From Planctomycetota bacterium (lineage in GTDB: Bacteria; Planctomycetota; UBA11346): a stretch of 64,000 nucleotides of DNA. The notes below the pieces were generated by a model. That model worked only from the letters and a program-made list of their open reading frames with translations, was not told the DNA's origin and did no database searches. The first letter of the stretch is position 1, and every line of letters starts with the position of its first letter. The stretch is taken from the NCBI GenBank assembly GCA_013696105.1, contig JACCZE010000336.1:7865-71864 (forward strand), read 5' to 3'. Shown here one piece after another: positions 7,483 through 36,510 of this stretch. The position numbers were made by a program, and so were the translations under genes.

Positions 7483-7483
7483 C

Positions 7484-11019: not shown

Positions 11020-11156
11020 CAGACGCCCCTTGGTCGGAGCGCGCGTCGTCTGGCGCTGCGGAACCGGCACCAGTCGGGCCGGCTTCACCAGAGTGGGTCG
11101 CGGCTGCGCGCGCACGGGGGCGTCGCTGCGACCGCCGCGTCGACCCAGACGCACCT

Positions 11157-12989
11157 TCATCCCCGCTCCAGGTCGGCGACGATCTCGTCGTATGCGCGCA
11201 CGCTGTCATCCAATCCACCCGGACGGGAGCGCACCAGCCAGAGTTCGCGATGCCGTGCCGTCAGCCGGCGGAACGATTCGGCGAGCGTGCGGCGCCAGGC
11301 CGGATCGGTGGGCGACGTGCGGCGCATCGTCGCGCGGCGTGCGGTCTTCGAGGCCTCCTCCAGCGTGTGCATGATCTCGGCGGTGAGTTCGTGTGCGATG
11401 TCCAGCGGCGCGGAATCGAACAGCTTCGCCAGCCGGTCTTCGACCGACCGCCAGTCCGCTGCCTCGCCGACCCAGGGCTTGTCCCACGGCATGTGCAGGT
11501 CCTGGTAGAGCGCGGAGCGGTTCCCGAGCGGGCGGCGCACGCCATCGGGACCGTCCTTGCCGCCGAGCAGGCGCAGGGGCGCATCGACATCGCCGAGCTC
11601 GTCGAGCCAGCCGCCGAGCGCCAGACTGGCGTCGTCGAAGGCGTGCAGCGAGGTGGCGCGCGGATCGTAGGTCGCCTCGCCGCTCCATGCCCGGTGCGCT
11701 GCCTCGGCGAGCGCATTGAGTTCGATGGGCCATTGCTGGCGGTGGCCGTGATCGCCCCAGCTGGTCACCAGGTATCCGCGTGCGCCGCCAGCGATGCCGG
11801 CGCGTGCCGCTGCCAACAGGTTCCCGCGCCGCGGTCCGGTGCGCCCGACGATGCTGCGCCAGCCGCTGGTGCCGGGACAGACCCACACCTCGCGTCCAGC
11901 CGTACGGAACTGTTCGCACCAGGTCTCGAAGCGTCCGTGCGCTTCGTAATCCCAGGCCAGGCCGATGAGGTCCTCGGGCAAGCGGCCGAGGGCTTCGGGG
12001 TGATGGAGCGCGATGTCGGCCCAGAACATCGGGCGCTTGCCCAGACGGCGCGCGATCGCGCACACCTGTTCGACGAAGCCGAGGTAGACGTCGGCGCGAC
12101 CGCGGCGTTCGACCTCGGCACGGGAGCGGCCCTGTCCGAGATCGTAGGTCTCATCGCATCCGATGTTGATCAGCGGACTCGTGAAGCAGGGGGCGAGCTG
12201 GGAGAGCAGATCATCGATCAGCGCGATCGATCGCGGGTCCCCTGGACACAGGCTGAAAGGACCCTTCAACACGCTATCGTCGAAGGTCCATGGCGTGTCC
12301 TGACCCTGGATCTCGGCCAGCGGCGCGTAGCGCGGATGGGCGAACCAGCGTTCGAGGTGTCCGAAGCAGTTCTGGTTGGCTGCGAGTTCGATTCCGTGGG
12401 ACCGGCAATGGGCGTCGAGCGTACGGATCTCGTCGGGGGTGATCGGCGACCAGCCGCGCCAAGCGTCCTCGTGGCCGATGTAGGCGTAGGTGTGTTCGGT
12501 GTAGAGCTGCAGGTGGTTGATCTTGAACGAAGCCAAGCGCTCGACCGTGGCCAGCAGGTGGGCCATGGTCGGGACCCGGTCGCGCGAGATGTCGAGCATC
12601 ACCCCGCGGATCGGGAATGCCGGACGGTCCTGGATGCGCACGCAGGGCAGTCGACGACCGTACTGCTTCAAGAGCTGTGACAGGGTGCGCGCGCCATAGG
12701 CGATGCCGCGCGCGTCATCGGCCTCGATCAGGATGCGCGAGGGAGAGACCGTGAGCCGGTAGGCCTCGGGATTCTTCAGCGGCTCGATCGCCACGCCGCA
12801 AATGATCTGGGCATCGACCTCGCCATCATCGCTGCCAACGCGGTCGCCCAGGACACGGGCGACCGCCGGCAGATAATCGGGATGTCCATGGATACCGAAG
12901 ACGTGCGGAACGTCGCGCCATTCGCCCACCAGGAGGATCGCCTTGGGCGCCGGCAGCAGCAGCGGGTGCAGGTCCAGGAGCGCGGTCAT
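11157..12989 (-). CDS. Glycoside hydrolase family 20 beta-N-acetylhexosaminidase-like protein, cytoplasmic (no signal peptide)
   Basis: RGVMLDISRDRVPTMAHLLATVERLASFKINHLQLYTEHTYAY and the catalytic region INIGCDETYDLG (D-E pair). The ATG at 12989 overlaps the upstream stop as ATGA. The upper part of the 1025-aa track ORF above 12989 was rejected. Confidence 0.8.
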   Translation of the reverse strand: MTALLDLHPLLLPAPKAILLVGEWRDVPHVFGIHGHPDYLPAVARVLGDRVGSDDGEVDAQIICGVAIEPLKNPEAYRLTVSPSRILIEADDARGIAYGARTLSQLLKQYGRRLPCVRIQDRPAFPIRGVMLDISRDRVPTMAHLLATVERLASFKINHLQLYTEHTYAYIGHEDAWRGWSPITPDEIRTLDAHCRSHGIELAANQNCFGHLERWFAHPRYAPLAEIQGQDTPWTFDDSVLKGPFSLCPGDPRSIALIDDLLSQLAPCFTSPLINIGCDETYDLGQGRSRAEVERRGRADVYLGFVEQVCAIARRLGKRPMFWADIALHHPEALGRLPEDLIGLAWDYEAHGRFETWCEQFRTAGREVWVCPGTSGWRSIVGRTGPRRGNLLAAARAGIAGGARGYLVTSWGDHGHRQQWPIELNALAEAAHRAWSGEATYDPRATSLHAFDDASLALGGWLDELGDVDAPLRLLGGKDGPDGVRRPLGNRSALYQDLHMPWDKPWVGEAADWRSVEDRLAKLFDSAPLDIAHELTAEIMHTLEEASKTARRATMRRTSPTDPAWRRTLAESFRRLTARHRELWLVRSRPGGLDDSVRAYDEIVADLERG

Positions 12990-14626
12990 ACGGGTGCGGG
13001 TTGCGGCTGCAGGTGCGGGTCCCGATCCTCCTCCATCGATCCGCCCCGCGGGTCCTTCATCGACACGCACACCGCCAGCGACACCGCGGTGGCGATGAGC
13101 AGGCGCCACGGCGAGGCGAGGACCAGGCGGTGGATACCCTGATGGGTGCTCAGATCCGGCAGGATCCAGCAGGTGAAATTGTACCAGATCGCCGGCTGCA
13201 GGAAGGCTGTCATGGCGAAGCCCATGACCAGGGAGGAGATGGCGGTGAATGGCGTGCCACGGCGGGTGAACAACGTGGTGAGGAAGACCGCCAGCAGGCC
13301 GGAGTACGCGAAGGTCATCACTCCCAATGCGAACTCGATCAGCGTCTCGTTGTTGTGCTTCCACCACGCCACGCACGCGCATGCGAACAGCGCCAGCACG
13401 ATGCCCCAGCCGACCACCGCCAACCGGCCGATAAGCAGGTAGTGCCGATCCGGACGATTCTTCAAGAGCGGGCGATAGAAATCGTTGACGAAGGCCGACG
13501 CCATCGCGTTCAGGGCCGACAGCAGGCTGGCGAACGCCACCGAGAACAGTCCCGCCATCATCAGGCCGCGCAGTCCCTGGGGCATTTCGTGATGAATGAA
13601 GGACAGGAAGACATCCTTCGCCTTCGGTGTCGGATAGGTCGGTGCGGCCGCGCCCATCAGGTCTGGACGCTGGTAGTACAGGTACAGCAGCAGGCCGATG
13701 GCCATGAACAGCATCGTCACAGGGATGCCCATGAGGATTGCGAACAGCGCCGAACGCCCGCCGCGCACCGCGTCCTTGCAAGTCAGCATGCGCTGGGCGA
13801 GATCCTGGTCGGTGCCGTAAGCGGCGAGGTTGAAGAGCACCCAGCCGGTGATGGCGGTGAACACGGTGAAGGTGGTGCCGGGAGAGAGGTCGAAGCTCAG
13901 CACTGCGAGCTTCGAGTGATCCCCCACTCGGGTGGACGCCAGCTCCGAGACGATCTCGGTCACCGGGATGGGAATGCGGTGGAGCAGGACTCCGGCTGCC
14001 GCCAGGGTCGCGCCGATGAGCACGATGATCTGGATGACGTCGGTCCAGATGATGCTCGCGATGCCGCCGACCAGGGTGTAGACGATCCCGACCAGCGCGA
14101 CCACCGCGATCGCGATGTACAGGTGGTGCGGGTGATCGATGCCGGTGTCGCCGAACAGCAGCAAGGCGGCCGGAGCCGCGGCGATGAACAGCCGCGATCC
14201 GTTGGCGAACACCCGACCGATGACGAAGGTCCAACTCGCGGCCATCTTGACCCCCGGCCCGAAACGTCGGCCGAGCAGTTCATAGACCGTGACCACCTGG
14301 TAGCGGTAGAACACCGGGATGAAGAACCAGCCCACGATCAGCACCGCCAGGATGGCGCCGATGGTGGCCGACAGGTAGGTCAGATCCCCGGCGTAGGACT
14401 GTTGCGGTCCGCCGATGAACGTCGCGGCCGACAGCGCCGTCGCGAGCACCGACAGCGCCACTGCCCAGGGTGGCATCTGCCGCTCGCCGACGAAGTACGC
14501 GTCGGCGGTGGCCGGACGGCGCGAAACGAGGTAACCGGTGACCACCAGCACAGCGAAGTAGGCGGCGAGCACCACCCAGTCGGCGAGCTGGAATGGGGTT
14601 GCCGGCGTTACGAGGGGGGCGTCCAC
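12986..14626 (-). CDS. Sodium:solute symporter family (SSF) transporter
   Basis: A 546-aa polytopic membrane protein with the SSF-typical N-terminus (FQLADWVVLAAYFAVLVVTGYLVSRR...YFVGER) and about 13 TM segments. Confidence 0.85.
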   Translation of the reverse strand: MDAPLVTPATPFQLADWVVLAAYFAVLVVTGYLVSRRPATADAYFVGERQMPPWAVALSVLATALSAATFIGGPQQSYAGDLTYLSATIGAILAVLIVGWFFIPVFYRYQVVTVYELLGRRFGPGVKMAASWTFVIGRVFANGSRLFIAAAPAALLLFGDTGIDHPHHLYIAIAVVALVGIVYTLVGGIASIIWTDVIQIIVLIGATLAAAGVLLHRIPIPVTEIVSELASTRVGDHSKLAVLSFDLSPGTTFTVFTAITGWVLFNLAAYGTDQDLAQRMLTCKDAVRGGRSALFAILMGIPVTMLFMAIGLLLYLYYQRPDLMGAAAPTYPTPKAKDVFLSFIHHEMPQGLRGLMMAGLFSVAFASLLSALNAMASAFVNDFYRPLLKNRPDRHYLLIGRLAVVGWGIVLALFACACVAWWKHNNETLIEFALGVMTFAYSGLLAVFLTTLFTRRGTPFTAISSLVMGFAMTAFLQPAIWYNFTCWILPDLSTHQGIHRLVLASPWRLLIATAVSLAVCVSMKDPRGGSMEEDRDPHLQPQPAPV

Positions 14627-14724
14627 CCGTGAGGGAATACCGACGGATGGCCGCGGTTCCAGAGGCGTCGTCTCCGCGGCTGCGCTTGATGTGGTGCGCG
14701 GTTCCTGGCCCGTAGGTTGAACGC

Positions 14725-15855
14725 ATGAGACATCACCTGCTGGCCGCCGTGATGCTGGTCGCTGCCTCGATGGGTGCCGAGGAGGGGCAGCGCTACCAGC
14801 CGGTCTCGCCCTGGCCGTCGCTGACCTTCACCAAACCCCTGTGCATCGCCCATCCACCGGATCTCTCCGATACGCTCTACCTCATCGAGCAGACCGGTCG
14901 GATCCGCTATTTCCACCAGGGTGAGAAGAACCCGCAGGCCGTCACCGCGCTCGACATCACCGCCAAGGTGAACAGTTCCGGGAACGAGGAAGGCATGCTC
15001 GCCCTCGCCTTCCATCCGAAGTTCGCGTCCGATCGGCGCGTGTTCATCTACTACTGCCTCGACAAGCCCCGGCGCACCCGCCTGTCGAGTTTCCTCGCCG
15101 ACGCGAAGGACCCTGCGAGCTTCGACCCGGCGAGCGAGCGCGTCCTGCTCGAGATCGACCAGCCCTATTCGAACCACAACGGAGGCATGCTGCTGTTCGA
15201 CCGCAAGGGCCTCTTGTACCTGAGCATCGGCGACGGCGGCTCGGGCGGGGATCCGCACGACAACGGTCAGAGCCTGAAGACCCTGCTCGCGAAGATCATC
15301 CGCATCGACATCGATAAAACCGATGGCGCGCGGCCCTACGGCATCCCCGCTGACAATCCCTTCGTCGGCATCGGCGGCGCCCGGCCAGAGATCTGGGCCT
15401 ATGGACTACGCAATGTCTGGCGCATGAGTTTCGATCGCGCGACCGGGGACCTCTGGGCTGGCGACGTCGGACAGAACAAATGGGAGGAGGTCGACGTCAT
15501 CATCAAGGGGGGCAACTACGGTTGGAACGCGCGGGAGGGGAAGCATGTGTTCAAGGACGGGGTGACCGCACAGAAGGCCATCGAGCCGATCCTGGAGTAC
15601 CCGCGCGATGCCGGTCAATCCATCACCGGTGGCTATGTCTATCGCGGAAAGCGTCTTCCCGAGCTGGTCGCTACCTACATCTACGGCGACTTCGCGAGCG
15701 GTCGGATCTGGGGCGCGACGGTCGCGAACGGCAAGCTCTCGACCAACCGCGAGATCGCGCGCGCTGGGGCGATCTCTTCCTTCGGAGAGGACCGCGACGG
15801 AGAGATCTATTTCACGTCCTTCGATGGGCACGTGTACACGCTCGCGAAACCCTGA
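14725..15855 (+). CDS. PQQ-dependent soluble sugar dehydrogenase (sGDH/YliI-like beta-propeller), secreted
   Basis: Signal peptide, then GMLALAFHP, NHNGGMLLFDRKGLLYLSIGDGGSGGDP and YGLRNVWRMSFD, which match the glucose/sorbosone dehydrogenase family. Confidence 0.85.
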   Translation: MRHHLLAAVMLVAASMGAEEGQRYQPVSPWPSLTFTKPLCIAHPPDLSDTLYLIEQTGRIRYFHQGEKNPQAVTALDITAKVNSSGNEEGMLALAFHPKFASDRRVFIYYCLDKPRRTRLSSFLADAKDPASFDPASERVLLEIDQPYSNHNGGMLLFDRKGLLYLSIGDGGSGGDPHDNGQSLKTLLAKIIRIDIDKTDGARPYGIPADNPFVGIGGARPEIWAYGLRNVWRMSFDRATGDLWAGDVGQNKWEEVDVIIKGGNYGWNAREGKHVFKDGVTAQKAIEPILEYPRDAGQSITGGYVYRGKRLPELVATYIYGDFASGRIWGATVANGKLSTNREIARAGAISSFGEDRDGEIYFTSFDGHVYTLAKP

Positions 15856-15882
15856 CGATTCGTAGCCGTCGCCTCATCCTCG

Positions 15883-16587
15883 TCACTGGTGGTCGGCGAT
15901 CCCGGTGTCCTGCTCGAGGTGGGCGAGGTCGTTCACCGACATGATGTGGCCGTAACGCTTGGGTTCGCCGTTGACCGCGACCGCGAACGGGCGCACGCGG
16001 TTGATGCCGGTGTTAGACACCACCAGATGCCAGGTGTGCGCGCGGTCGAGCCCCATCATGTACGACAGGTAGAGACCCATGACGCCGCCATGGCAGACCA
16101 CCAGGATGCGTTCTCCGTGGTGGCGCTCGGCAATGTCGGTCAGGGCCTGGGTGATGCGCAGCGCGCCCATGTTGTAGGATTCTCCGATGCCGCCGCCGCG
16201 GCGCATATCCGGATTCCGCAGCTGCCAGGCCGCCCATTCCTCGGGAAATTTCTCGGCGATCACCGCGCCGGTCATGCCGGTCCAGGTACCGGCGTCGAGT
16301 TCGCGCAGACGGGGGTCGATCAGGATCGGTAGCGCCACGGCGGCGGACAGGTATCCCGCGGTCGCGGTGGCGCGCTGCAGATCGCTGGCATAGAGCGCGG
16401 CGAAGCTCATTCCGGCGAGGCGCTTGGCCACACGCTGCGCCTGCTGGTGACCGGTCGCGGTCAGGGGAACGTCCATCTGGCCGGTGACATAGCCGCCGAG
16501 GTTGCCATCGCTCTGGGCATGGCGCACGATCCACAGTTCGGTGAGTTCGCGCCTGAGAGAGGTCGCGGTGATCGCTGCGCCGCTCAC
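15883..16587 (-). CDS. Histidine phosphatase family protein (phosphoglycerate mutase-like)
   Basis: LWIVRHAQS.N is the RHG motif with catalytic His. The start was set at a GTG overlapping the upstream stop (GTGA) at 16587. The track ORF starts at 16629 and would overlap the neighbour by 45 nt. Confidence 0.7.
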   Translation of the reverse strand: MSGAAITATSLRRELTELWIVRHAQSDGNLGGYVTGQMDVPLTATGHQQAQRVAKRLAGMSFAALYASDLQRATATAGYLSAAVALPILIDPRLRELDAGTWTGMTGAVIAEKFPEEWAAWQLRNPDMRRGGGIGESYNMGALRITQALTDIAERHHGERILVVCHGGVMGLYLSYMMGLDRAHTWHLVVSNTGINRVRPFAVAVNGEPKRYGHIMSVNDLAHLEQDTGIADHQ

Positions 16588-17171
16588 CGCGCCACCGGGA
16601 ACCAAGCCGGCTCGGCGCCTGGCTTCCATTTGATGTTGCAGCCCATGCTCGGCCGTTGATCCGACGGCGCTGGCAGCCCCGCCAGACAGGAGTCCAACGC
16701 CGTTCGCAGGTCCTTCCCAGTCACGGGGAGAGCGTTCTTGGGGCGGGAGTCGTCGAACTGGCCGCGATAATACAGCTTCCGTGCCTGGTCGTAGAGGAAG
16801 AAGTCCGGAGTGCAGGCGGCGCGATAGGCCTTGGCGACCGATTGGTCGGCGTCGTGGGCATAGGGGAAGCGGTAGCCGGCGGAGCGCTTCTCGGCCGCCA
16901 TGGCGGCGAAGCCGTCGTCCGGATACCGCTCTCCATCGTTGCTGTTGATGCCGACGATAGCGACTCCCCGTGGCTGGTAGTCATCCGCGAGTCGAGCGAT
17001 GTCGGCGCGGAGGTGCTTCACGTAGGGACAGTGGTTGCAGATGAACATCACCACCAGTGCCTGCGCGCGCGACAGGTCCTGCAGGCTCAGGGTCCCGCCC
17101 TCGGCCTCGGGCAGCGAGAACGGCGGAGCCGGAGTGCCGAGCGGAACCATCGTGGATGTCTGCGCGACCAT
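16584..17171 (-). CDS. Thioredoxin-fold redoxin (CxxC thiol-disulfide oxidoreductase-like)
   Basis: The CNHC active-site motif sits in a thioredoxin-like context (ALVVMFICNHCPYV). Confidence 0.65.
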   Translation of the reverse strand: MVAQTSTMVPLGTPAPPFSLPEAEGGTLSLQDLSRAQALVVMFICNHCPYVKHLRADIARLADDYQPRGVAIVGINSNDGERYPDDGFAAMAAEKRSAGYRFPYAHDADQSVAKAYRAACTPDFFLYDQARKLYYRGQFDDSRPKNALPVTGKDLRTALDSCLAGLPAPSDQRPSMGCNIKWKPGAEPAWFPVAR

Positions 17172-17324
17172 GACGGCAGCGTAAGAGGCAGACGGGCGAG
17201 TCCACGGAGAGCCAGGTACGGGGCGCGCGTGAAGGGCCGATCAACGACCATGGGCCATCAACCACCAACCACCAGCCACCAGCCACCAACGACTATCCCA
17301 GGAGCGTCCCCCGACGGCAGGCGC

Positions 17325-18353
17325 TCAATGCAGGCTGTCTCGTAGCAGTTCCTTCTTCGCCCGCGCTTCTTCCGCGTTGGCGCGCCGGGTGAAACCGAGC
17401 GCGAAGATGGCGATCACCACCAGGCTGACCAGCCAGCTCTCGATCTCGAGGAATGGGCGGTAATGCAGGTTCCACTGCGCGTTGGCGAGGCGGAATTCCT
17501 CCCGCGCCGTTTCGGCGGCGAGATGGTCGCGCTGGTCCTTGGGCAGATCGGGGTGGCGTTCGTCGGTCAACCGCTGCTGCTCGCGGGCGATGATGTCGAG
17601 ACTCGGAGGTGCCGGCGAACGCGCGTTGACGATGATGACGTGATTGAGCTCGAGCAGACGTTCGGCGGTGGCCCCGACGGAGCGCTCGTACTCGGCTGCT
17701 GTCGCATAGGCGGCAGCAGGCGGAGCGATCGGGGCGCGCACGATGTCGACTGGGGTTTCGAGGATCAGCAGCGCCCCTACCAGACCGACGGCGGCGAATG
17801 CGGCACCCTCCAGACGCGGAAAATGCGACAGCAGGGTGACGAAGCCCTGGGCGGCGAAGCGGATGGCGAGGATGCCAAGGAAGCTGCCGATGATCAGGAT
17901 CCACAGCTTGCCGGATAGTGCGATCGTGGCGGCGATCGAATCCACCGAGAACACGATGTCGGCCAGCTCCACCGCCACGACAGTGCTCCAGAACGCCGAG
18001 AGCCCGGGGATCTTCCAGCTCGGGGCCTTCGGCTCGCCCTCGACGTGCTTCTTCTTCAGGAAATAGGCCACGGCGAGGTACAGCAGGTACGCCCCGCCGA
18101 TCAGCTTCAGGTACCATTTGCTCATGATCCAGACTGCGAGGATCAGGGCTATGATGCGGAAGACGTAGGCGCCGATCAGTCCCCAGCGCAGCGCCCTGCC
18201 CTGCTGCTCCTTCGGCAGTTCGCGCACCATCAGCGCGAGCACCACCGCATTGTCCAACGACAGCAGGCAGTGCAGGACGATCACCACCCCGACCACCAGA
18301 AGGTCGCCGGGGACGAAGGTGTCCAACTGCAGGAAATGGAGCAGCGATTCCAT
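17325..18353 (-). CDS. TerC family integral membrane protein
   Basis: The LSLDNAVVLALMV motif, typical of TerC/Alx family members, with 7-9 TM segments. Confidence 0.85.
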   Translation of the reverse strand: MESLLHFLQLDTFVPGDLLVVGVVIVLHCLLSLDNAVVLALMVRELPKEQQGRALRWGLIGAYVFRIIALILAVWIMSKWYLKLIGGAYLLYLAVAYFLKKKHVEGEPKAPSWKIPGLSAFWSTVVAVELADIVFSVDSIAATIALSGKLWILIIGSFLGILAIRFAAQGFVTLLSHFPRLEGAAFAAVGLVGALLILETPVDIVRAPIAPPAAAYATAAEYERSVGATAERLLELNHVIIVNARSPAPPSLDIIAREQQRLTDERHPDLPKDQRDHLAAETAREEFRLANAQWNLHYRPFLEIESWLVSLVVIAIFALGFTRRANAEEARAKKELLRDSLH

Positions 18354-18429
18354 AGGGAAGCAGGCTGCAGTCCGCAGGTGGTGCGGTCAAGAGCAACCGG
18401 GTCAACCTCGCCCGCTCACTGTGGTCGGA

Positions 18430-19611
18430 TCAGTGACCTGGAACCCCGGGAGCGGCTGGCGCGATCGCCCCGCTACTCAGCGCTTCGGGCAGGAAGTAGA
18501 AGAGCACGCCGATGATGATGTAGACCGACAGCAGCTGGACGCCCTCGAGCCAGTTGGATTCGCCGTCGCCGACCACCTGCTCGGTGACCAGCACCGCGAG
18601 GATGATCGCCAGGACCTCCGCGGTGGTGAACACCAGATCCATTGGTCCGGCTGATTCCGGCCCGATGAAATAGCTGGCGAAGACCAGCACCGGTGCGACG
18701 AACAACGCGATCTGGATGCTTGAACCCAGGGCGATTCCCACCGCCAGGTCCATGCGCTTCTTCATGGCCATGAGGATCGCGGTCGAATGTTCCGCTGCGT
18801 TGCCGACGATGGCGACGATGATGACGCCGACGAAGACGTTGGTCATCCCGAATGCCGTCGCGGCGTGCGTGACCGAGCCGACCATCCACTCGGCGAGGAT
18901 CGACAGCACGACCGTGGCCCCGACCAGCACGCTGATCGCCTTCTTCACGCTCCAGTGCGTGCCTGCGGCTTCATCTTCGACTTCCGCCGCCTGGGCCGAG
19001 GAACCGGTGAACAGCTGCCGGTGGGTGTGCAGCGAGAAGAGCAGGCTGCAACCGTAGGTGATGATCAGCACGATCGCGATCACCAGGCTCAGGCTGAGCT
19101 CCTTGTCGTGGATCGATTCGCCGCCCAGGTGATGGAAGGTCGCTGGGGCGACCAGCGACGCCGCCGCGAGGAACACCATCGAGCTGTAGGAGCTGACGCC
19201 CTTGGCGTTGAAGGGCAGGTTCGGATGCTTCAGTCCGCCAGCGAAGCAGGCGGCTCCGAGCACCAGCAGCAGGTTGCCGATGATCGAGCCGGTGATCGAG
19301 GCCTTCACCACATCGTACATGCCGGCATGCAATGCGATCAGGGCGATGATCAGTTCGGCCGCGTTACCGAAGGTCGCGTTCAGGAGGCCGCCGATGCCAT
19401 CGCCGGTGCGCTCGGCCAAGTGCTCGGTGGCGCGCCCCATCCAACCTGCGGCCGGGATGATCGCCAGGCAGGACGCGATGAAGATCCAGGTATGGTTGTG
19501 GCCGATGAATTCCTGGTACGCCGCGATGGGAATGAAGACCAGGAGCCAGTTCAGCGAGGGCTTGAGGTAGGAGCTCATCGCGGAAGGCTGGTGGTTATCC
19601 GGTCCTGTCAA
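18430..19611 (-). CDS. Ca2+/H+ (cation) antiporter, CaCA family (ChaA/CAX-like)
   Basis: Two alpha-repeats carry GNAAELI and GNAAEHS motifs. An alternative start at the Met at 19578 is possible. Confidence 0.85.
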
Positions 19612-28784: not shown

Positions 28785-28824
28785 TCCACCGATCTCCACC
28801 GATCTCCACCGATCTCCACCGATT
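28785..28824. repeat. Tandem decamer repeat (tccaccgatc x4) 60 bp upstream of tRNA-Thr
   Basis: Seen directly in the sequence. Confidence 0.85.
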
Positions 28825-28886
28825 CGGCCTCGCTCCACCGACCCGGCTTGTCTTGCCCAGGGTCCCTCGTACCGTTCACCGCCCAC

Positions 28887-28961
28887 GCCCGAGTAGCTCA
28901 GTGGTAGAGCAGCGCTTTCGTAAAGCGAAGGTCGGAGGTTCGAATCCTCTCTTGGGCACCA
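28887..28961 (+). tRNA. tRNA-Thr (anticodon CGU)
   Basis: A 75-nt cloverleaf: acceptor gcccgag/cttgggc, D-arm gctc-agtggta-gagc, anticodon loop ttCGTaa, T-arm ggagg-ttcgaat-cctct and a 3' CCA. It is close to E. coli thrW. Confidence 0.9.
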
Positions 28962-29009
28962 TTCCCGATCTCCGTCCCGCACGCTGGCCGCGCTCCCGCT
29001 GAGCGGGGA

Positions 29010-30026
29010 TCAGGCGTAGACCGCGATCACCGGGCGTTGTCCGGATACGCTGATCTCGCGGGTCGAGACGCGCGTGAATCCCGGAAACACCAGCGAATCG
29101 ATATCGATGGTCAGCACCGCCAGTCGCCCGCCCGGGGCGACGCAGCGCGCGATGGCCGGTCCGACGCGGCGATGGAAGTCGGGCAGTGCGCCATCGACGC
29201 CGACCTGCCGGTCCCAGGGCAGGTTGCACACCACCCGTTCCATCGACGCCGCTGCCAATGGCAGGATGCGCGCATCCCACCGCGCGCTCGAGACGGAGGC
29301 GCCAGCCGATCGCGCATGGGTGCGGGCCGCGCTGATGGCATCGCCGTCGAGATCCCCCGCGGTCGCGCGCGCGCCAGCCAGGGCGGCTTCGATCGCGATC
29401 GTGCCGACGCCGCAGCACGGATCGAGGACGCGCATGCCCGGGCGCACCTCGGCCAGCTCCAGCATGGAAGCGGCGATGCTCGGCCTGAGCGAGCCGGGCC
29501 GGTGCGTCCCGAGGTAGGTCCGTTCATGCAGCGGATCCGCTGCCACACGCACGCCGACATAGGCGATCTCGTGCTCGATGAACACGCGCACGTTGAGGTC
29601 GGCTTCGTCGTCGGTCTCGACATGGTTCCAGCCGCTGCGTTCGGCGATGCCCGACGAGACGGCTGCCCGGATCTCCTCGCCCGAATAGTTGCGTTTGCCG
29701 ACGAAGCTGGCGGTGACGGTGAAGCTCGGTGAGGGGGGCAGCGCGCGCACCGCGCGCAGCGCGGTCACGGTCGCGCGCAGATCCAGCCGTCCCGCCAGCT
29801 GCCGCACGGTCGCCAGCACCGCACGCGGACGTGCGATTCCTGCCCAGGTCGCGCAATCGATGAACAAGTCATCGACCGTGCGCAACGACAGCAGCGCACT
29901 GAGATCGCCGGCGACCGTGGCCGTGACACGGCGGTAGCCGACGCTGCCGACGACGGCCAAGCGGCCGAGTTCAGCGGCAGCGACATCTTCCAGCCCGCGC
30001 GTGGTGAGGACGAAGACCGCGGTCAT
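29010..30026 (-). CDS. THUMP-domain class I SAM-dependent RNA methyltransferase (RlmL/Trm-like)
   Basis: An N-terminal THUMP-like region, then VLDPCCGVGTIAIEAALAG (motif I), a DLD acidic residue and NLPWDRQ (DPPY-like motif IV). The start was set at the internal Met at 30026. Confidence 0.7.
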   Translation of the reverse strand: MTAVFVLTTRGLEDVAAAELGRLAVVGSVGYRRVTATVAGDLSALLSLRTVDDLFIDCATWAGIARPRAVLATVRQLAGRLDLRATVTALRAVRALPPSPSFTVTASFVGKRNYSGEEIRAAVSSGIAERSGWNHVETDDEADLNVRVFIEHEIAYVGVRVAADPLHERTYLGTHRPGSLRPSIAASMLELAEVRPGMRVLDPCCGVGTIAIEAALAGARATAGDLDGDAISAARTHARSAGASVSSARWDARILPLAAASMERVVCNLPWDRQVGVDGALPDFHRRVGPAIARCVAPGGRLAVLTIDIDSLVFPGFTRVSTREISVSGQRPVIAVYA

Positions 30027-30154
30027 GGGGAGGATCGAGACGGACCGGTTCCGGCTGGTTCCGATTCCAGCATCATCGGAACGCCAAGACATCGGCGCGC
30101 TGCATCGAGTCCCAGGAGACGGAGGACGTAGGACGGAGGACCCAGCACGTTGTC

Positions 30155-30625
30155 CTATCTCGTCGCGGCCGCGACCTTGAACACCAGCTTGCGATAACGG
30201 ACTTCCGAGCCGGCGGGATGGCAGCAGGGCTTGTGCGCGTCCGCCGGCCAGAAGATCGCGAATTCCTGCGGCCGCACCAGCAGCCGCGTGGGCACGCCGG
30301 GAGGCTGGTGGTAGAAGCGGATGTCGCCATCGGGAGCGAAGTCGTCGCTGGGCGCGAGGTCGCGCATCGGCATCCACTCCATGATCTCGGATCCGGCGAG
30401 ATTAACCTGGATGTCGATGTAGCGGCGGTGCGATTCGAAGCGCTTGTCCTCGGCTGCGCGCGTGACTCCGGACTCGACGATCACGAACAGGTCCTCGCCG
30501 CAGAGCGGATAGCGGCCGTCGGCGCAGGTGCGGGCCTCGTCGCGCCCGCACCAGGCGAACGCCTGTGCGAACAGGGGATGCAGGTGCGCGTAGCGCGCAG
30601 CGTTGGCCAGCGTGTCGAGGATCAT
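30155..30625 (-). CDS. YhcH/YjgK/YiaL family protein (DUF386 cupin-like; sialic-acid-catabolism-associated in E. coli)
   Basis: Near collinear with E. coli YhcH: GRYPL.GEDLFVIV, YIDIQ, FAIFWPADAHKPCC and RKLVFKV. The start ATG overlaps the ACP stop as ATGA. Confidence 0.8.
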   Translation of the reverse strand: MILDTLANAARYAHLHPLFAQAFAWCGRDEARTCADGRYPLCGEDLFVIVESGVTRAAEDKRFESHRRYIDIQVNLAGSEIMEWMPMRDLAPSDDFAPDGDIRFYHQPPGVPTRLLVRPQEFAIFWPADAHKPCCHPAGSEVRYRKLVFKVAAATR

Positions 30626-30882
30626 GCCTTCGCGGGCTGCGAGCGGATGAACGCGTCGAGCGCGGCGAGGCTCGCGAACGCCTTCTTGCCGACATCCATG
30701 TTGCCGATGCGCACGCCGTAGTTGCGCTCGACGATCACCGCCAGCTCGAGCGCGTCGATCGAATCGAGGCCGAGGCCCTCGCCGAACAGCGGGGCGTCGG
30801 GAACGATGTCCGCAGGCGACATGCCTTCGAGGTTCAATCCGGTGATGATCTGCTGCGCCAGTTTCAGCTGCGATTCGCTCAT
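30622..30882 (-). CDS. Acyl carrier protein
   Basis: 86 aa with the phosphopantetheine attachment motif LGLDSIDALEL. Confidence 0.8.
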   Translation of the reverse strand: MSESQLKLAQQIITGLNLEGMSPADIVPDAPLFGEGLGLDSIDALELAVIVERNYGVRIGNMDVGKKAFASLAALDAFIRSQPAKA

Positions 30883-30965
30883 CGCGCGGAGGGTACGTCC
30901 GGCGTCGGCAAGACAACTGGGGGACATGGCGCTCGGTGTCGCCAGATCGGCCAGGATGGAAGCGA

Positions 30966-32519
30966 TCAGCGGTCAGCGACCCAGGTCTCGGCCCAGGCGC
31001 TGAGGGAGCGGTCGGCCTCGACGCGTGCCAGGAGCACGGCTGGACATCCATCGGCGATCAGGTCCTGGGCGATGGCCCGGCCCTGGTCGTCGCTTGCGCC
31101 GAGGATGGTGCACCCCGGGCCGGTGATGCGCAGGCGGATGCTCAGCTCGCCGACCGGCGCGCTCGGAAGCGTATACGGGAAGCGCTGGGGATCGGCGCCC
31201 CGCTCGCGACGGTTGCGTTCGAACGACCGGTCGCTGGCCGCGCAGCCGGCCTCGGTCAGCAATACGACCCCGGTGTCGGCGGGCAGCTCGCCCGATTCCA
31301 TGGCCAGGACGATGAGCGCCCGGCAGGCGAGATCCATGCGTCCCCACATCGGATCGACGCGGCCGATGATCTCGAGCGCGGTCATGCGTGGCAGGCCGTC
31401 GTCTCCGAATTCGCGCCAGGTGCCGGTCTCGTCCTGGTGCCGCCAGCCGCGCGCGTCCATGTCGATGCGGCGGCGCAGTCGGGCCCGGACCGCAGCGCGC
31501 GCCGGAGCCGGGCGGTCGCCGATCACGACCACGCCATTGATGCCGCCGAACCCCGCATTCGCCGAGAGGATCGATCCCGCCGCGAGCGCGTGGACGCCCG
31601 GAGGAAGGACGGTGATCGCACCCGCGCAGCCTTGCTGACGCAGGTTGACCGTGCCGGGAGTCGCGCCACGCGCGCGCGCCGCAGCGGCGATCGCGAATTC
31701 GGCGAGGCCGCACGCACCCAGGCTGTGCCCGAGCAGGCCCTTGATCGCAGTGACGGGTACGCGCGGACAGGTCGCCGCATACGCCAGGCTCTCACTGTCG
31801 TCGTTGTAGCGCGTGCCGGTGCCGTGGGCGACGATGAGCGCGAGGGGCGAATCTCCAGCGCGCGCGATCGCCGCGTTGCACGCCCGCGACACGCCGCTGC
31901 CGTCGCGCGTCGGCCCGGTGAGGTGGTTGGCATCCAGGCTCGCACCCCACCCCTGCAGATGCAGAGATCCGCCATCGTCGTCTGCGGACAGCACCACCGC
32001 GCCAGCGACCTCGCCGAGCGCCAAACCGGCGCGCTCGGCATCGAAGGGATGGCTGCCGGTCGGGTCGAGCGCGCGCAGCGCCGCGAATCCATCGCTGATG
32101 AACGGGCCGATACGGTCCCCCGCCAGCACCAGGACCCGCCGGGCGCGACCGCTCGCGAGCCAGCGCGCCGCCACGCCGCATGCGATCGGCGAACTGGCGC
32201 ATGCTGCGCTCACGGCGAAGGCCGGCGCCGCGAAGTGCTTGCCGAGTTCCGTCGCGACCTGCGCGGGTCCCCCGGCATAGCCTGCACCGCTGATCAAGCT
32301 GTCGCACCAGGGCCCGAGGTCGCCTTTGGTGGTCGCGAAGACGACCAGATCGGGTCGAGCGCCGGCGAGTGCTTCGTTCCCGATGCGGATCAGGGTCTCG
32401 ACCAGTCCCCCCGGCAGCGCCAGTGGTGCGGTGGAGGCGACGCCGGCATCGAGCGCGGCCAGCGTCGCAGCGAGGTCGCCGACGGGCGTGGCGAGGGAGG
32501 TTCCGGCGATGCGCGGCAT
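30966..32519 (-). CDS. Beta-ketoacyl-ACP synthase (KS) with a short N-terminus, fused to a C-terminal Cys-less chain-length-factor-like half domain
   Basis: KS active-site Cys in AVSAACASS, His in AHGTGT and GHSLGACG, and the C-terminal NAGFGGINGVVVI. A further 180 aa or so resembles the KS N-terminal half, with FPYTLPSAPVGELSIRLRITGPGCTILGASDD and the catalytic Cys position replaced. The start is at the Met at 32519. The upper 640 nt of the track ORF were rejected. Confidence 0.8.
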   Translation of the reverse strand: MPRIAGTSLATPVGDLAATLAALDAGVASTAPLALPGGLVETLIRIGNEALAGARPDLVVFATTKGDLGPWCDSLISGAGYAGGPAQVATELGKHFAAPAFAVSAACASSPIACGVAARWLASGRARRVLVLAGDRIGPFISDGFAALRALDPTGSHPFDAERAGLALGEVAGAVVLSADDDGGSLHLQGWGASLDANHLTGPTRDGSGVSRACNAAIARAGDSPLALIVAHGTGTRYNDDSESLAYAATCPRVPVTAIKGLLGHSLGACGLAEFAIAAAARARGATPGTVNLRQQGCAGAITVLPPGVHALAAGSILSANAGFGGINGVVVIGDRPAPARAAVRARLRRRIDMDARGWRHQDETGTWREFGDDGLPRMTALEIIGRVDPMWGRMDLACRALIVLAMESGELPADTGVVLLTEAGCAASDRSFERNRRERGADPQRFPYTLPSAPVGELSIRLRITGPGCTILGASDDQGRAIAQDLIADGCPAVLLARVEADRSLSAWAETWVADR

Positions 32520-32607
32520 GACTGCAGGGTCGAGCCGCCGGTGGCATGGGCAAGGGGCGCGGCCAGTTTCCGGTGTCCTCGCCGTTCCCAGGGCGTATTC
32601 CGCGCCG

Positions 32608-34137
32608 ATGTCCCCGTCCATCGCCTGGATCAGCGGCGCGGCCTTGCCCGCCGATCGGCCGTCCACGCTCGGGGAGCTGTTCTCCCGATGCGTCGCTCGC
32701 TTGGGATCCACCACGGTGCTCGTCGATGGCGAGCTGGGGCTCTCCTGGCAGGACCTGGACCTGTGGTCGGGGCGGATCGCGGCCGCGCTGGCGGATCGGG
32801 TCGCACCCGGAGAACGCATCGCCATCCTCGCGCCCAACGGCGCGGCGCACCTGCTGGTGGAGCTGGCGGCGTGGCGACTGGCGGCAGTGGCCGCGCCGAT
32901 CTTCACGGGATTCGGCCAGCAGCGACTGCGCGCGCTGGTGGCGGAACTCGATCCACGCGTCGTGGTGGTCGCCGATCCTGCGCACGCGGCGTGCGCACCG
33001 CCCGGGGCGGAGATCATCTCGACCGCGCGGGTGCTCGAGTGGGCGCGCTCCTCGGTGCGTGGCATCGATCGACCCGCGTCGGCGCGGACGCCGTGCCTCA
33101 TCCAATTCACCAGTGGATCCACCGGCGCGCCGCGCGGCGTGGTGCTGTGCCACGACAACCTCGCGAGCCAGCAGGCGGCGTTCGCGCAGTTGTGGCCGGA
33201 GATCGGAGCCGGAGATCGCCTCGCGTCCTACCTGCCCTGGCATCACAGCTTCGGCGCGCTCGCCGAGCGGCTGTGGGCGCTGTGCCGCGGGGCGACCATC
33301 ACCGTCGTGCCCGGCGGTGGCCGTGATCGCCAGCGTTTCGTCGACACGGTGCGCGCCGTGCGCCCGACCGTCTTCATGAGCGTGCCGAAGATGCACGCCG
33401 TTGCGCTGGGCGAACACGCTCTGGACGCGCGCGCGCTGCGCTGGGCGTTCACCGCCGGCGCACCGCTGCCCGAGGAGCTGTTCGCCGCCTACCAGCGCCT
33501 GGGTGCCCCGGTCTACGAAGGCTGGGGTCTGACCGAGACCAGTCCCAGCGCCACCATCACGCCTCCCGGATCGCGCCACCATCCAGGAGTGGTCGGCGTC
33601 CCGATCCCCGGCGTCGAGGTCGGCGTCGAAGCTGACACCGGCCGCATCCTGGTGCGCGGTCCCAATGTCATGCTCGGATACCACCGCCGCGAAGCGCCGA
33701 CGCTGGTGGATGGCGGGCTGGACAGCGGCGACCTCGGACGCTGGTCGGATCACGGCCTGGTGCTGACCGGGCGTGCGGATCAGGTGCTGAAGCTCGGCAA
33801 TGGCGAGAAGGTCGCCGCTGCCGAGATCGAGGCGGCGCTGCTCGCGCATCCCTCGGTCCATCACGCGGTGGTCGCTGCCGATGGTGAGCTCATCGCTCTA
33901 CTCGATGCGCACGCCGGCCATCGGATGAGCGCCCTGGCCGACGCCGTGCGCGCGGCGAATGCGGCCGAACCCGTCCCGTATCGACGTATAGCGCGCGCCT
34001 ACGCCCTGTCGCGGCCGTGCACCATCGAGAACGGCCAATTGACCGCGTCGATGAAGGTCGCGCGCGGCGCCGTCCTCTCGATGTGGTCGCGGTGGACCTC
34101 CGAGGGTGGAGCGGAAGTCGTCGCGATCGCGCTGTAG
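32608..34137 (+). CDS. AMP-dependent synthetase/ligase (acyl-CoA or acyl-ACP synthetase-like)
   Basis: FTSGSTGAPRGVVLCH (A3 P-loop), YEGWGLTETS (A5) and GRADQVLKLGNGEKV (A8/A10 region). The start was set at the Met at 32608. Confidence 0.85.
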   Translation: MSPSIAWISGAALPADRPSTLGELFSRCVARLGSTTVLVDGELGLSWQDLDLWSGRIAAALADRVAPGERIAILAPNGAAHLLVELAAWRLAAVAAPIFTGFGQQRLRALVAELDPRVVVVADPAHAACAPPGAEIISTARVLEWARSSVRGIDRPASARTPCLIQFTSGSTGAPRGVVLCHDNLASQQAAFAQLWPEIGAGDRLASYLPWHHSFGALAERLWALCRGATITVVPGGGRDRQRFVDTVRAVRPTVFMSVPKMHAVALGEHALDARALRWAFTAGAPLPEELFAAYQRLGAPVYEGWGLTETSPSATITPPGSRHHPGVVGVPIPGVEVGVEADTGRILVRGPNVMLGYHRREAPTLVDGGLDSGDLGRWSDHGLVLTGRADQVLKLGNGEKVAAAEIEAALLAHPSVHHAVVAADGELIALLDAHAGHRMSALADAVRAANAAEPVPYRRIARAYALSRPCTIENGQLTASMKVARGAVLSMWSRWTSEGGAEVVAIAL

Positions 34138-34239
34138 CGATGTCCATGCGGCAGCCAGCAGCACACCGGCCGTATCACGGTGCTGGTGCTGGTGCTGGTG
34201 CTGTTGGTGATGCTGAGCGCCTCCGAGAGGACGCCGGCG

Positions 34240-34692
34240 TCATCCGTCGCGCGATCCTGGTCGCGTTCCGGAGCGGTCGGCCTCGGAGCGGAGGTCGACG
34301 CGTGGCTGCCCATGAGCCACCGCAGCGAGGACCGCGCGGTGCCAGGGGCTGACGGGAAGACCGGGGAGGGCCGCCCAGGGTGCCGACACCGCGACGTGGC
34401 CGCGCTCGGAGGCCTGCGGGCGCTCGTCCGGCCCGAGCGCGGTACGGAAGAACACGGCAATGAAGCGGTCGCCCTGCCAGAGCTCGCAGCACCGGCTGAA
34501 GCCGGGTGGCCGCCACGCGAGCTCCTCGGCGAGTTCCCGTTCCAGGCACCGTTCCGGGGTCTCGGCGTCGTCGATCCGGCCACCGAAGCAGGTCAGCAGC
34601 GCAGGAGCGTAGCGGGCACCCGGAGGCCGCAGCTGCAGCAGTAGCCAGCCGCGCGCATCCTCGATGACCGCGCAGGCGTACTCGGGAAGCAT
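34240..34692 (-). CDS. NUDIX hydrolase
   Basis: The Nudix box GGRIDDAETPERCLERELAEEL fits GX5EX7REUXEEXGU. Confidence 0.75.
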   Translation of the reverse strand: MLPEYACAVIEDARGWLLLQLRPPGARYAPALLTCFGGRIDDAETPERCLERELAEELAWRPPGFSRCCELWQGDRFIAVFFRTALGPDERPQASERGHVAVSAPWAALPGLPVSPWHRAVLAAVAHGQPRVDLRSEADRSGTRPGSRDG

Positions 34693-34806
34693 GGCGGAGT
34701 ATCCAGCCGCGGATGGCGCCTCAACGCCGATTGCATCGCGCTGGCGTTGTTTTGCCGATCCGTGCTGCGGGCCTTGATCGTGTCCGCGAGCTGGAACCAT
34801 GGTCCC

Positions 34807-36510
34807 ATGCCCACCCTGGTGCAGATCGGCGCCGGAAACATCGGTCGCGGCTTCATCGCGCCGACGTTCGCGCAGGCGGGCTGGTCGGTGGTCCTGGTCG
34901 ACATCGATCGCCGCCGGATCGAGGCGGCCCGCACCCGCGGCCGCTACACCGTCACCGAGGTGGACAACGGCGGATCCCGGTTGGTGCCGGTGGCTCCCGT
35001 GACGGGCGTCGACGCGGCCGACCAGGATGCCGTGGTCGATGTCCTGGCGGCATGCGATCTGGCCTCGACCGCGGTCGGACTCAACGCCCTTGCGCGCCTG
35101 GGTCCGGTGCTCGCGCGTGGTCTGATCGCGCGCTGGGCAGCCGGCCGCGACACCCTGGACGTGCTGCTGTGCGAGAACGGCGCGACGGCGGATGCCATTC
35201 TGCGCGAGGCGGTGATGTCGGCGCTACCGGCGGAACAGCGCGCGCGCGCGCGCGCCAGCCTGGGAATCGTGCGCACCTCGATCGGGCGGATGATCCCTCC
35301 CGGCGATGAGGTGGATGCGTTGGACATCGCGGTCGAGCCGTACGCGCATCTGCCGGTGGATCGCGCCGGATTCGTCGGCGCCATCCCCGTCGTGCCGCAT
35401 CTCGAACCTCGCGCGGATTTCGACCTGGTGCTCGGCCAGAAGCTGTACCTGCACAACCTCACCCACGCCTGCCTGGCCTATGCCGGATGCGCGCGGGGCC
35501 TGGCGACCATCCCCGACTGCATGGAGGACGCCGCGCTCGTGGCTGGCGCGCGCCGTGCAGGCGAGGAGGCGAGCGAGGCGCTCGCTCGCGCGCATGGCGG
35601 AACGGCCGCGGGTCGTGCGCGCGTGCTCGCCGAGTGCACGGACCTGCTCGAGGCGCTGTTCGTACGCTATCGCAACCGCGCCCTCGCCGATCCCGTCGCG
35701 CGGGTCGCCCGGGATCCCGTGCGCAAGCTCGCCGTCGACGACCGGCTGGTGGGTGCCGCACGCCTGTGCCTGGCTCACGGGGTCCAACCGAAGGCCATCC
35801 TCGCCCACATCCTGCTCGCGTGCGACCATATCGTCGCCGCCGACGATCCGGGGGCAGCGCTCTGGCGTTCGCTCCAGGGCCGCGGGGCGCTGGCCACCAT
35901 CGCGGCGATCACCAAGCTTCCACCGGAGGATCCATTCATGCGCGCTCTCGACCTCAGCGATCGCCGCCGCCAAGCCACCCAGTCCATGCGCGCAGCGGGC
36001 CTCGTCATCACCGATCCCGAAGCCGATCTGGTGGAGATCGCCGACTTCGGCCTCGGTCGCTTCGAGCAATTCGGTCTGGCGATCCACGTCTACGTCAACA
36101 CCGCGCGCTGCTGCGCCAAGGAGCTGGTGATGCTGCCGGGACAGATCTGCCCTGAGCACCGGCATCCGCCGATCCCTGGTGGCGCCGCCGAGGGCGGAGA
36201 TCCCGGCAAGGAGGAGACCTTCCGCGTGCGCCAGGGCGAGGTGCACCTGTTCCTGCCTGGACACCACAAGGATGGCGCCGAGCGCACGTTCGCGCTCGGT
36301 CTCGTGCCCGAGGACAAGCGCGATGCCGTGACGGTGTTCAAGCACGTCCACCTGACGCCCGGCAGCCAGTACACGCTCAAGCCCAACACCCCCCACTGGT
36401 TCGTCGCCGGCACGGAGGGGGCGATCGTCAGCGAATTCTCGACGCGCTCGCGCGACGAGGCGGACGTTTTCACCGATCCCGCCATCGTCCGCGTCCCCGA
36501 CCCGGCATGA
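34807..36510 (+). CDS. Fusion protein: mannitol-1-phosphate 5-dehydrogenase-like N-terminal domain plus D-lyxose isomerase-like cupin C-terminal domain
   Basis: The N-terminus VQIGAGNIGRGFI...VLLCENG is collinear with MtlD. The C-terminus KELVMLPGQICPEHRHPPIPGG...GKEETFRVRQGEVHLFLPG matches the D-lyxose/D-mannose isomerase cupin signature. Confidence 0.75.
   Translation: MPTLVQIGAGNIGRGFIAPTFAQAGWSVVLVDIDRRRIEAARTRGRYTVTEVDNGGSRLVPVAPVTGVDAADQDAVVDVLAACDLASTAVGLNALARLGPVLARGLIARWAAGRDTLDVLLCENGATADAILREAVMSALPAEQRARARASLGIVRTSIGRMIPPGDEVDALDIAVEPYAHLPVDRAGFVGAIPVVPHLEPRADFDLVLGQKLYLHNLTHACLAYAGCARGLATIPDCMEDAALVAGARRAGEEASEALARAHGGTAAGRARVLAECTDLLEALFVRYRNRALADPVARVARDPVRKLAVDDRLVGAARLCLAHGVQPKAILAHILLACDHIVAADDPGAALWRSLQGRGALATIAAITKLPPEDPFMRALDLSDRRRQATQSMRAAGLVITDPEADLVEIADFGLGRFEQFGLAIHVYVNTARCCAKELVMLPGQICPEHRHPPIPGGAAEGGDPGKEETFRVRQGEVHLFLPGHHKDGAERTFALGLVPEDKRDAVTVFKHVHLTPGSQYTLKPNTPHWFVAGTEGAIVSEFSTRSRDEADVFTDPAIVRVPDPA

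Follow-up and report, generated by a model that had tools for sequence, protein, structure and literature searches.

The length of the chain and the shape of the product in type II polyketide-like systems are fixed by pairs of a ketosynthase (KS) and a chain length factor (CLF), and these pairs are hard to express and to engineer, since two subunits have to co-fold. In the aryl-polyene systems, the chain length factor ApeC has a single thiolase fold and is about half as large as its KS (PMC8358021). The AmcG protein of the cispentacin system is a small partner lacking known motifs, which forms a heterodimer with the KS and is needed for the solubility of the KS partner complex; the cispentacin clusters of the “minimal type” comprise an acyl carrier protein (ACP), a KS, a partner factor, and an adenylating enzyme, and the system borrows FabD and FabI from fatty-acid synthesis (PMC10698177). 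In the literature searched, the only covalent KS–CLF fusions reported are the full-size didomains of polyunsaturated fatty acid (PUFA) synthases, and the search turned up no report of planctomycete type II systems of the kind considered here. The present analysis concerns a locus in a 64,000-nucleotide stretch of DNA of a Planctomycetota bacterium (contig JACCZE010000336.1; the whole stretch is referred to below as the window), which encodes a 517-aa protein joining a KS and a half-size CLF-like domain in one chain. This protein is 100% identical to a database entry labelled “MAG: Planctomycetes bacterium”.

We consider it likely that the locus represents a minimal four-gene machine resembling type II polyketide synthases (PKS) or fatty-acid synthases, conserved in an uncultured lineage of Planctomycetota, where a single-chain KS–CLF is combined with processing by a protein of the YhcH/YjgK/YiaL family (DUF386). 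The product of this module is probably a small polyketide- or fatty-acid-like molecule. Within the known type II PKS-like systems, its novelty is the single-chain, half-size KS–CLF with a recruited DUF386 metalloprotein. The module, in the coordinates of the window, is composed as follows.

32608..34137, plus strand: AMP-dependent (adenylate-forming) ligase, 509 aa (PF00501, E 1e-65)
32520..32607, no strand: divergent intergenic spacer between the ligase and KS genes, 88 bp (read from the sequence)
31515..32519, minus strand: ketosynthase domain, residues 1–335 of the 517-aa fusion (PF00109 and PF02801 matches)
30966..31514, minus strand: C-terminal CLF-like domain, residues 336–517 and the stop codon (single thiolase half, in frame with the KS)
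30622..30927, minus strand: acyl carrier protein, 101-aa open reading frame (ORF) (PF00550, E 2e-8)
30155..30625, minus strand: YhcH/YjgK/YiaL-family (DUF386) protein, 156 aa (PF04074, 127 bits)

The N-terminal part of the fusion carries a full set of KS catalytic residues. The position 32519 was the best choice for the start of this gene, the stop is at 30966, and in the resulting protein the motifs AACASS, HGTGT, GHSLG, and GPGCT are located at residues 105, 232, 264, and 467, respectively. The catalytic set, including Cys107, His232, His265, Lys260, Thr234, Thr236, and the GFGG loop, is intact and invariant among 49 aligned homologues; hence, decarboxylative condensation with malonyl-ACP has all the residues that it requires. 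The Pfam KS domains are confined to residues 76–293 of the protein, and only 106 residues precede the catalytic Cys (the median for the 49 family members is 105) vs. ~160 in FabF. The alignments to FabF-type structures begin at the query residue ~98, corresponding to the FabF residue ~158, so ~55–60 residues of the FabF length are missing ahead of the Cys. Judged by eye against full-length relatives, the missing N-terminal piece includes a long loop and an “RxMD” helix following the first helix. Identical architecture is displayed by ~94 full-length homologues (45–64% identity), which is far beyond chance.

Among the NCBIfam models, PRK09185 (NF006618) gives the best score with the KS, 138.1 bits vs. 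a cut-off of 407, covering only the profile positions 151–392. The KS fails the cut-offs of the FabF model TIGR03150 (120.9 bits vs. 493.75), the FabB model NF005935 (36.6 bits vs. 630), and the AmcF model (102.7 bits vs. 325). PRK09185 and PRK09184 (the latter is matched by the ACP, see below) have adjoining NCBIfam accessions, and we take both to be models of aryl-polyene-type clusters. A housekeeping role of the FabF/FabB type was ruled out on the basis of the scores, the architecture, and the fused partner: FabF and FabB are ~410-aa homodimeric KS, whereas the window protein has a shortened N-terminal half, and the dimer position in its model is held by the fused domain. Identity with a KS-III (FabH-like) enzyme was ruled out as well, the weak PF08545 match spanning the active-site helix only and the triad being Cys-His-His.

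The homology of the C-terminal extension (182 aa, residues ~336–517) becomes clear only via its structure and the profile of its stand-alone homologues. The Pfam search with residues 334–517 (E ≤ 10) yielded no true match (only a spurious DUF6221 hit) and no direct match to PF13723 (Ketoacyl-synt_2); the comparison of the extension profile with PDB sequences returned only noise. Aligned by hhalign with a single PF13723 protein from one of the related loci (L005; L-numbers denote related loci on public contigs), the extension gave a probability of 2.9% in a plausible register, and its best NCBIfam match was the AmcG model, weak and in a sensible register (E 0.033, 13.8 bits vs. a cut-off of 80). 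Conservation of the extension is among the highest in the protein, 16 of its positions being invariant (W392, G393, R394, D396, R400, G425, D430, Q445, F447, T450, L451, G457, E458, I461, R462, and G467). The equivalent of the active-site Cys, position 476, is occupied by D, S, or N and never by Cys in the 49 sequences; the Cys of the GPGCT motif is not conserved.

The AlphaFold2 (AF2) model of the whole protein, built with the 49-sequence alignment, attained a pLDDT of 96.1 and a pTM of 0.95, and that of the extension alone a pLDDT of 93. The order of secondary-structure elements in the modelled extension, beta-alpha-beta-alpha-alpha-beta-alpha-beta-beta, repeats that of the N-terminal half of a KS. 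The Foldseek search with the isolated extension model retrieved condensing enzymes only (E 1e-6 to 1e-5), including N-terminal halves of FabF, the ApeC of Xenorhabdus (6QSP_B, 238 aa, TMq 0.65), and that of Acinetobacter (7F28 A/C, ~200 aa); the actinorhodin CLF (1TQY_B) was matched partially, with a TMq of 0.50. The best match of the whole model was the KS–CLF didomain of PfaC (6RIW, TMq 0.78), ahead of KS-only chains (~0.59), so the extension is predicted to sit in the position of a CLF, i.e., of the second KS subunit.

A hidden Markov model (HMM) of the extension, run against 1.8 billion cluster representatives, retrieved 1221 proteins at E ≤ 1e-3, which beyond the fused clade were mostly stand-alone proteins of 190–300 aa. 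A PF00109 match was present in 71 of the 85 stand-alone homologues sampled and a PF13723 match in 23 of them; two of the stand-alone versions match PF00109 positions 79–170, up to the active-site region. The alignment of the extension and that of the stand-alone homologues (~230-aa proteins) were linked by hhalign with a probability of 99.9% (E 1e-34). Since 23 of these homologues match PF13723 and the extension itself does not, its link to this family is only transitive.

The third line of evidence is the occurrence of fused and split genes. The KS and the extension form one ORF in 21 planctomycete loci taken from public contigs and representing 20 distinct stretches; in a 22nd (L024) they are found in different reading frames. 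One ORF is also present in two non-planctomycete loci, labelled Spartobacteria and Lentisphaerae. In ~20 loci of other phyla (Myxococcota, Desulfobacterota, Bacillota, Bacteroidota, Nitrospirota, and candidate phyla), a KS homologue of ~370–400 aa is accompanied by a separate extension ORF of ~170–290 aa, mostly adjacent and overlapping, and in about seven of these loci the ACP gene follows. As the predicted structure, the profile homology, and the fusion and fission of the genes agree, the extension is a Cys-less single thiolase half, CLF-like, joined in cis to a KS whose catalytic residues are intact. A sequence-only reading of this DNA had already described such a domain of ~180 aa, along with the intact catalytic residues and the short N-terminal half of the KS, and all three descriptions have held up, the KS fold of the extension now being evident in the predicted models. 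All the elements it listed were also found where it had placed them.

Several observations were made on the loci with other arrangements. In two contigs of Desulfobacterota, a stand-alone homologue of the extension (169–193 aa) resides ~5.5 kb from the KS (L083, 2068–2577; L073, 2398–2979), directly upstream of a conserved ~420-aa protein. In the myxobacterial contig L087, a 767-aa fusion of a KS with a second KS N-terminal domain of the PF13723 type (5922–8225) is encoded beside a 641-aa relative of the window protein (9001–10926), with an ACP gene upstream; since this contig encodes two different fused condensing enzymes, more than one origin of the KS–CLF fusion seems likely. A crude gene caller based on the G+C content of third codon positions (GC3) was tried on L012, L013, L016, and L021 and dropped as too noisy.

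In comparison with the known systems, the window protein shares with ApeO–ApeC (6QSP, 7F28) a KS with the Cys-His-His triad and a Cys-less partner of one thiolase half, here on the basis of a predicted structure in which the C-terminal domain superposes on ApeC. Further common features are the presumed supply of the starter via an AMP-ligase and the occurrence of relatives of the fused KS in aryl-polyene-like clusters. However, ApeO and ApeC are separate subunits of a heterodimer, whereas the window protein is one polypeptide; its KS half is ~65–75 residues shorter than ApeO or FabF, the direct PF13723 match is absent from its C-terminal domain, and its KS remains far from the PRK09185 cut-off. 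The didomain of PfaC resembles it in having a KS and a CLF covalently linked in one chain, but there the CLF is full-size and embedded in a multidomain megasynthase; the window protein, with a sequence identity of ~15%, has a half-size CLF, is a stand-alone protein with no other domains, and works with a discrete ACP. In the aromatic type II PKS, KS-alpha is paired with a separate full-length CLF (KS-beta) of ~400 aa, unlike the fused half-size domain described here, and the locus contains no cyclase or aromatase genes. Overall, the module is related to two branches of the non-aromatic type II PKS-like systems, that of the aryl polyenes and that of cispentacin/coronafacic acid, and by the curated thresholds belongs to neither.

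The divergent ligase, the fused KS–CLF, the ACP, and the DUF386 protein are encoded together in at least eight sampled Planctomycetota contigs (L001, L003, L004, L006, L009, L010, L017, and L089), and the genes flanking the set differ among these eight loci. The divergent arrangement of the ligase and KS genes is kept in L001, L003, L004, L006, L010, L017, and L089. Three partial contigs (L011, L019, and L020) hold the KS and DUF386 genes; the ACP gene lies between them in L011 and L019, and no ACP match was found in the partial contig L020. One DUF386 orthologue was indexed in 120 blocks of the contig collection, and the 21 contigs read for it collapsed into one similar gene arrangement. The minimal starter-loading and elongation set proposed in the sequence-only reading is thus recovered in relatives, and the conserved synteny, together with the retained malonyl-decarboxylation residues, is consistent with such a function. 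At the same time, two members of the clade (L002 and L005) lack DUF386 and possess aryl-polyene-like genes beside the fused KS instead: ApeP-like and ApeI-like dehydratases and a MacAB/TolC-type exporter in L002; a lipid A-type acyltransferase, a separate KS and PF13723 CLF, a glycosyltransferase of family 2 (GT2), and an ApeI-like protein in L005.

The start of the ligase gene at 32608 was picked from the analysis of GC3 and start codons. The enzyme is presumed to be a starter-acid:ACP or CoA ligase; among solved structures it comes closest to ligases forming oxalyl-, malonyl-, and feruloyl-CoA (oxalate-, malonate-, and feruloyl-CoA ligases), matched with only ~100 bits, and its orthologues in the related loci (43–64% identity) occupy the same divergent position. 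For the ACP, starts at 30927 (101 aa) and 30882 (86 aa) were considered, the latter probably being the true one, as in the homologues. The phosphopantetheine-bearing Ser of the ACP is located in the motif GLDSID (LDS) and is residue 56 of the 101-aa ORF. The ACP passes the cut-off of NF006617 (PRK09184) with 81.7 bits vs. 70 and fails that of the AmcB model, which it matches weakly (30.4 bits vs. 80). Its gene is found immediately downstream of the KS gene in nearly all related loci. Since the ligase, the fused KS–CLF, the ACP, and DUF386 are conserved as a module, this ACP is dedicated to it, contrary to the view of the sequence-only reading, where it was an orphan.

The operon structure described here follows from gene overlap and spacing only. 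The minus-strand genes are arranged, in the order of transcription, as the KS–CLF (32519 to 30966), the ACP, and DUF386, and the stop codon of the ACP gene overlaps the ATG of the DUF386 gene as ATGA; hence, translation of the latter is probably coupled to that of the former. The 4-bp overlap is also preserved in L001, L004, L006, and L089. The 88-bp spacer is presumed to be a shared promoter region of the ligase and KS genes; a scan of positions 28800–34400 for promoter and terminator consensus sequences, uninformative overall, found no sigma-70 consensus in it. The downstream side of the module is occupied by the following features.

29010..30026, minus strand: THUMP methyltransferase (THUMP/UPF0020 RNA methyltransferase), 128 bp downstream of DUF386
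28887..28961, plus strand: tRNA-Thr(CGT) gene, between the module and the Rieske/NadB/MurD block

The methyltransferase gene (transcribed from 30026 to 29010) had been assigned in the sequence-only reading to the same transcription unit, an assignment that found no support in the promoter and terminator scan. The gene is missing from every related locus examined and was therefore rejected as a member of the unit. No such segment intervenes in L004 and L089, where the Rieske/NadB/MurD block immediately adjoins the module; in the window, this block is reached only past the methyltransferase and the tRNA gene, and the tRNA-Thr/THUMP segment therefore looks like a lineage-specific insertion. The co-transcription of the YhcH-family gene with those of the ACP and KS, also asserted there, agrees with the overlap described above, but the protein is a conserved fourth member of the module and not the unexpected sugar-related passenger it had been taken for.

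As a member of the YhcH (NanQ)/YjgK (TabA)/YiaL family, the DUF386 protein passes the cut-offs of PF04074 (127.4 bits vs. 26.5) and TIGR00022 (88.2 bits vs. 45.5) and retains the zinc/copper site (Glu, His, Asp, His) of this jelly-roll family. Its tetrad E64, H66, D71, and H131, invariant in 34 homologues, aligns with the zinc ligands of YjgK, where a Glu-His-Asp-His tetrad binds the metal (PMC12517248). Unlike the sialic-acid anomerase NanQ, it misses the equivalog cut-off for N-acetylneuraminate anomerase (NF040884, 91 vs. 160) and is encoded in an ACP/KS operon, not in a sugar operon. Those DUF386 proteins that are linked to a KS group apart from the others (52–77% identity). The genes of two more distant homologues (52% and 44% identity) do not adjoin KS or ACP genes, and DUF386 was not found in those non-planctomycete KS/CLF loci that were fetched; recruitment of DUF386 is therefore specific to the planctomycete clade of fused KS. 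Further non-sugar contexts of the family were observed in two loci, where a distant homologue is encoded directly downstream of a YcaO protein (L091, 4275–6459) or a ThiF/rhodanese protein (L090, 4756–6474).

Taken together, the following scheme can be suggested. The architecture, the fold, the catalytic residues, the history of fusion, and the four-gene synteny are what the analysis establishes; the substrates, the number of elongation rounds, the oligomeric state, and the part played by DUF386 are inferred. The ligase would adenylate a carboxylic acid and load it onto the dedicated ACP directly or via CoA. The housekeeping FabD and a phosphopantetheinyl transferase would act in trans, because the module encodes neither. 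The 517-aa protein would operate as a single-chain pseudo-heterodimer, in which the shortened but complete KS packs on the covalently attached, half-size Cys-less domain; the latter would replace the second subunit, like ApeC for ApeO and AmcG for AmcF, so the enzyme would work as a monomer with one active site. This KS–CLF would condense the ACP-bound starter with malonyl-ACP to beta-ketoacyl-ACP, probably in one or a few rounds, a small pocket being suggested by the shortness of the KS and the half size of its partner. Finally, the DUF386 metalloprotein may act on the keto intermediate or the released acid, e.g., in cyclisation, isomerisation, or release. DUF386 is known to open and close the ring of a 2-keto sugar acid (PMC8141875); hence, such a role is chemically plausible by analogy, although speculative. 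The more specific version of the scheme, where the DUF386 zinc protein is a partner of carrier-protein biosynthesis acting on the beta-keto product of a monomeric KS–CLF and the four genes make a lineage-specific metabolite or cofactor, is put forward tentatively and with more doubt than conviction.

Several points weigh against this scheme. The whole clade is known only from sequences and predicted models, and the monomeric single-chain arrangement likewise derives from a predicted model. With solved relatives at such a distance, the substrate of the ligase is not readable from its sequence. The contexts of L002 and L005 indicate that the fused KS may serve larger pathways, the rest of which may possibly be encoded elsewhere in this genome. 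The known functions of DUF386 all concern sugars or metal homeostasis; no paper tying this family to ketosynthases was found in the literature searched, so its role in carrier-protein biosynthesis is without precedent there.

Of the explanations competing with the four-gene machine, the one that survives best is a cluster of the cispentacin/coronafacic-acid type, in which a 2-oxo-dicarboxylic acid (e.g., 2-oxoglutarate) would be loaded by the ligase, elongated once, and closed to a five-membered carbocycle, the fused partner serving as a cyclisation factor in the manner of AmcG. The minimal-type cispentacin machinery is the best mechanistic precedent: the same four functions define the published minimal amc-like clusters (PMC10698177), and the likeness to AmcF–AmcG/AmcB/AmcH and Cfa3–Cfa4/Cfa1/Cfa5, being one of function only, comprises an adenylating enzyme, an ACP, a short KS, and a small partner. 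AmcF is also a short KS (its model has 369 positions), the nearest solved relatives of the ligase act on small dicarboxylates, and the KS and ACP match the AmcF and AmcB models, while AmcG is the top-ranked, though weak, match of the extension. However, the scores with all three models are far below the cut-offs, PRK09185 scores the KS higher than AmcF does, the ACP passes PRK09184 instead, and the AmcH model is not among the 25 best model matches of the ligase. The partner is fused in the window protein, DUF386 is not part of the amc clusters, and the main text of PMC10698177 mentions no planctomycete or fused example. A product of this type is therefore regarded as improbable.

Slightly less probable still is that the fused KS, the ACP, and the ligase represent the initiation arm of a pathway for an aryl-polyene- or flexirubin-like lipid pigment (cf. 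ApeH/ApeE/ApeR), with the genes for the reductase, dehydratases, exporter, and acyltransferases elsewhere in the genome. In L002 and L005, the same ligase and fused KS are located directly beside aryl-polyene-like genes, the PRK09184 model is passed by the ACP, and more distant fused relatives (33–39% identity, 560–740 aa) occur in large clusters with ApeI, ApeP, LolA, a thioesterase, and acyltransferases. Yet in at least eight contigs the four genes are surrounded by unrelated housekeeping genes only, and aryl-polyene clusters contain nothing corresponding to DUF386; the loci with aryl-polyene-like genes, in turn, lack DUF386, which suggests two alternative contexts rather than a split pathway. 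The tblastn search of the window with the ApeI-like, ApeP-like, lysophospholipid acyltransferase (LPLAT), GT2, and KS/CLF proteins of L002 and L005 found nothing but the KS itself; ketoreductase and LolA/MMPL export proteins were not among the queries. The genes adjoining the module in the window are unrelated to aryl-polyene pathways, and no exporter is located next to it. The locus is accordingly not a standard aryl-polyene or xanthomonadin core, and the extension has the KS fold; thus, neither of the two outcomes that the sequence-only reading had named as fatal to its proposal was observed.

As to the distant fused relatives themselves, two of them (L086 and L088, ~2400–19500 each) are found in ~17-kb clusters, which contain ApeI, ApeP, LolA, a thioesterase, acyltransferases, three ACPs, and a KS with a PF13723 partner, as well as two B12-binding or radical SAM proteins and FAD-dependent desaturase-like enzymes.

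A role in primary rather than secondary metabolism, e.g., in making a cofactor or a special-lipid precursor, by analogy with the BioZ-type condensation of an activated dicarboxylate with malonyl-ACP, is the least probable of the explanations considered: the module is single, small, and highly conserved (45–64% identity for the KS, 52–77% for DUF386), is set in several genomes among the genes of MurD, NadB, ribosomal protein S9, RRF, and UMP kinase, includes no regulator, transporter, or tailoring gene, and has a ligase resembling dicarboxylate-CoA ligases, but this support is circumstantial, no known cofactor pathway combines a KS–CLF with DUF386, and genes of the secondary-metabolism type replace DUF386 in some members of the clade.

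If the more specific and tentative version of the scheme is true, the 517-aa protein would be, among elongating condensing enzymes of the KS–CLF type, the smallest that is self-contained. Its length compares with ~600–640 aa for ApeO plus ApeC and ~820 aa for the FabF dimer. A natural compact single-chain KS–CLF would also be a handy model for structural and engineering work. The pattern of fission and fusion gives independent support, from genetics, to a role as obligate KS partners for a large family of ~230-aa proteins that lack annotation and mostly match the N-terminal KS Pfam model alone. To our knowledge, sugar anomerisation is the sole activity assigned to DUF386 so far, and the coupled gene gives this widespread family a new, testable biochemical context. 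Uncultured Planctomycetota commonly carry the module, which could be the source of a metabolite or lipid characteristic of the lineage.

The DNA around the locus is high in G+C (~0.70). Along the window, the G+C content changes from ~0.70–0.72 at 26–38 kb to ~0.61–0.66 over most of the right-hand part (~38000–64000). On the ligase side of the module, a 587-aa ORF (34747–36510, plus strand) encodes N- and C-domains of the mannitol dehydrogenase family and a C-terminal cupin resembling D-lyxose isomerase (PF07385, weak); it is overlapped by 4 bp by the gene of a prokaryotic ketohexokinase (PF25270; 36507–37646, plus strand). The 587-aa ORF, the ketohexokinase gene, and a NUDIX gene also adjoin the module in L003, and their presence therefore reflects lineage synteny.

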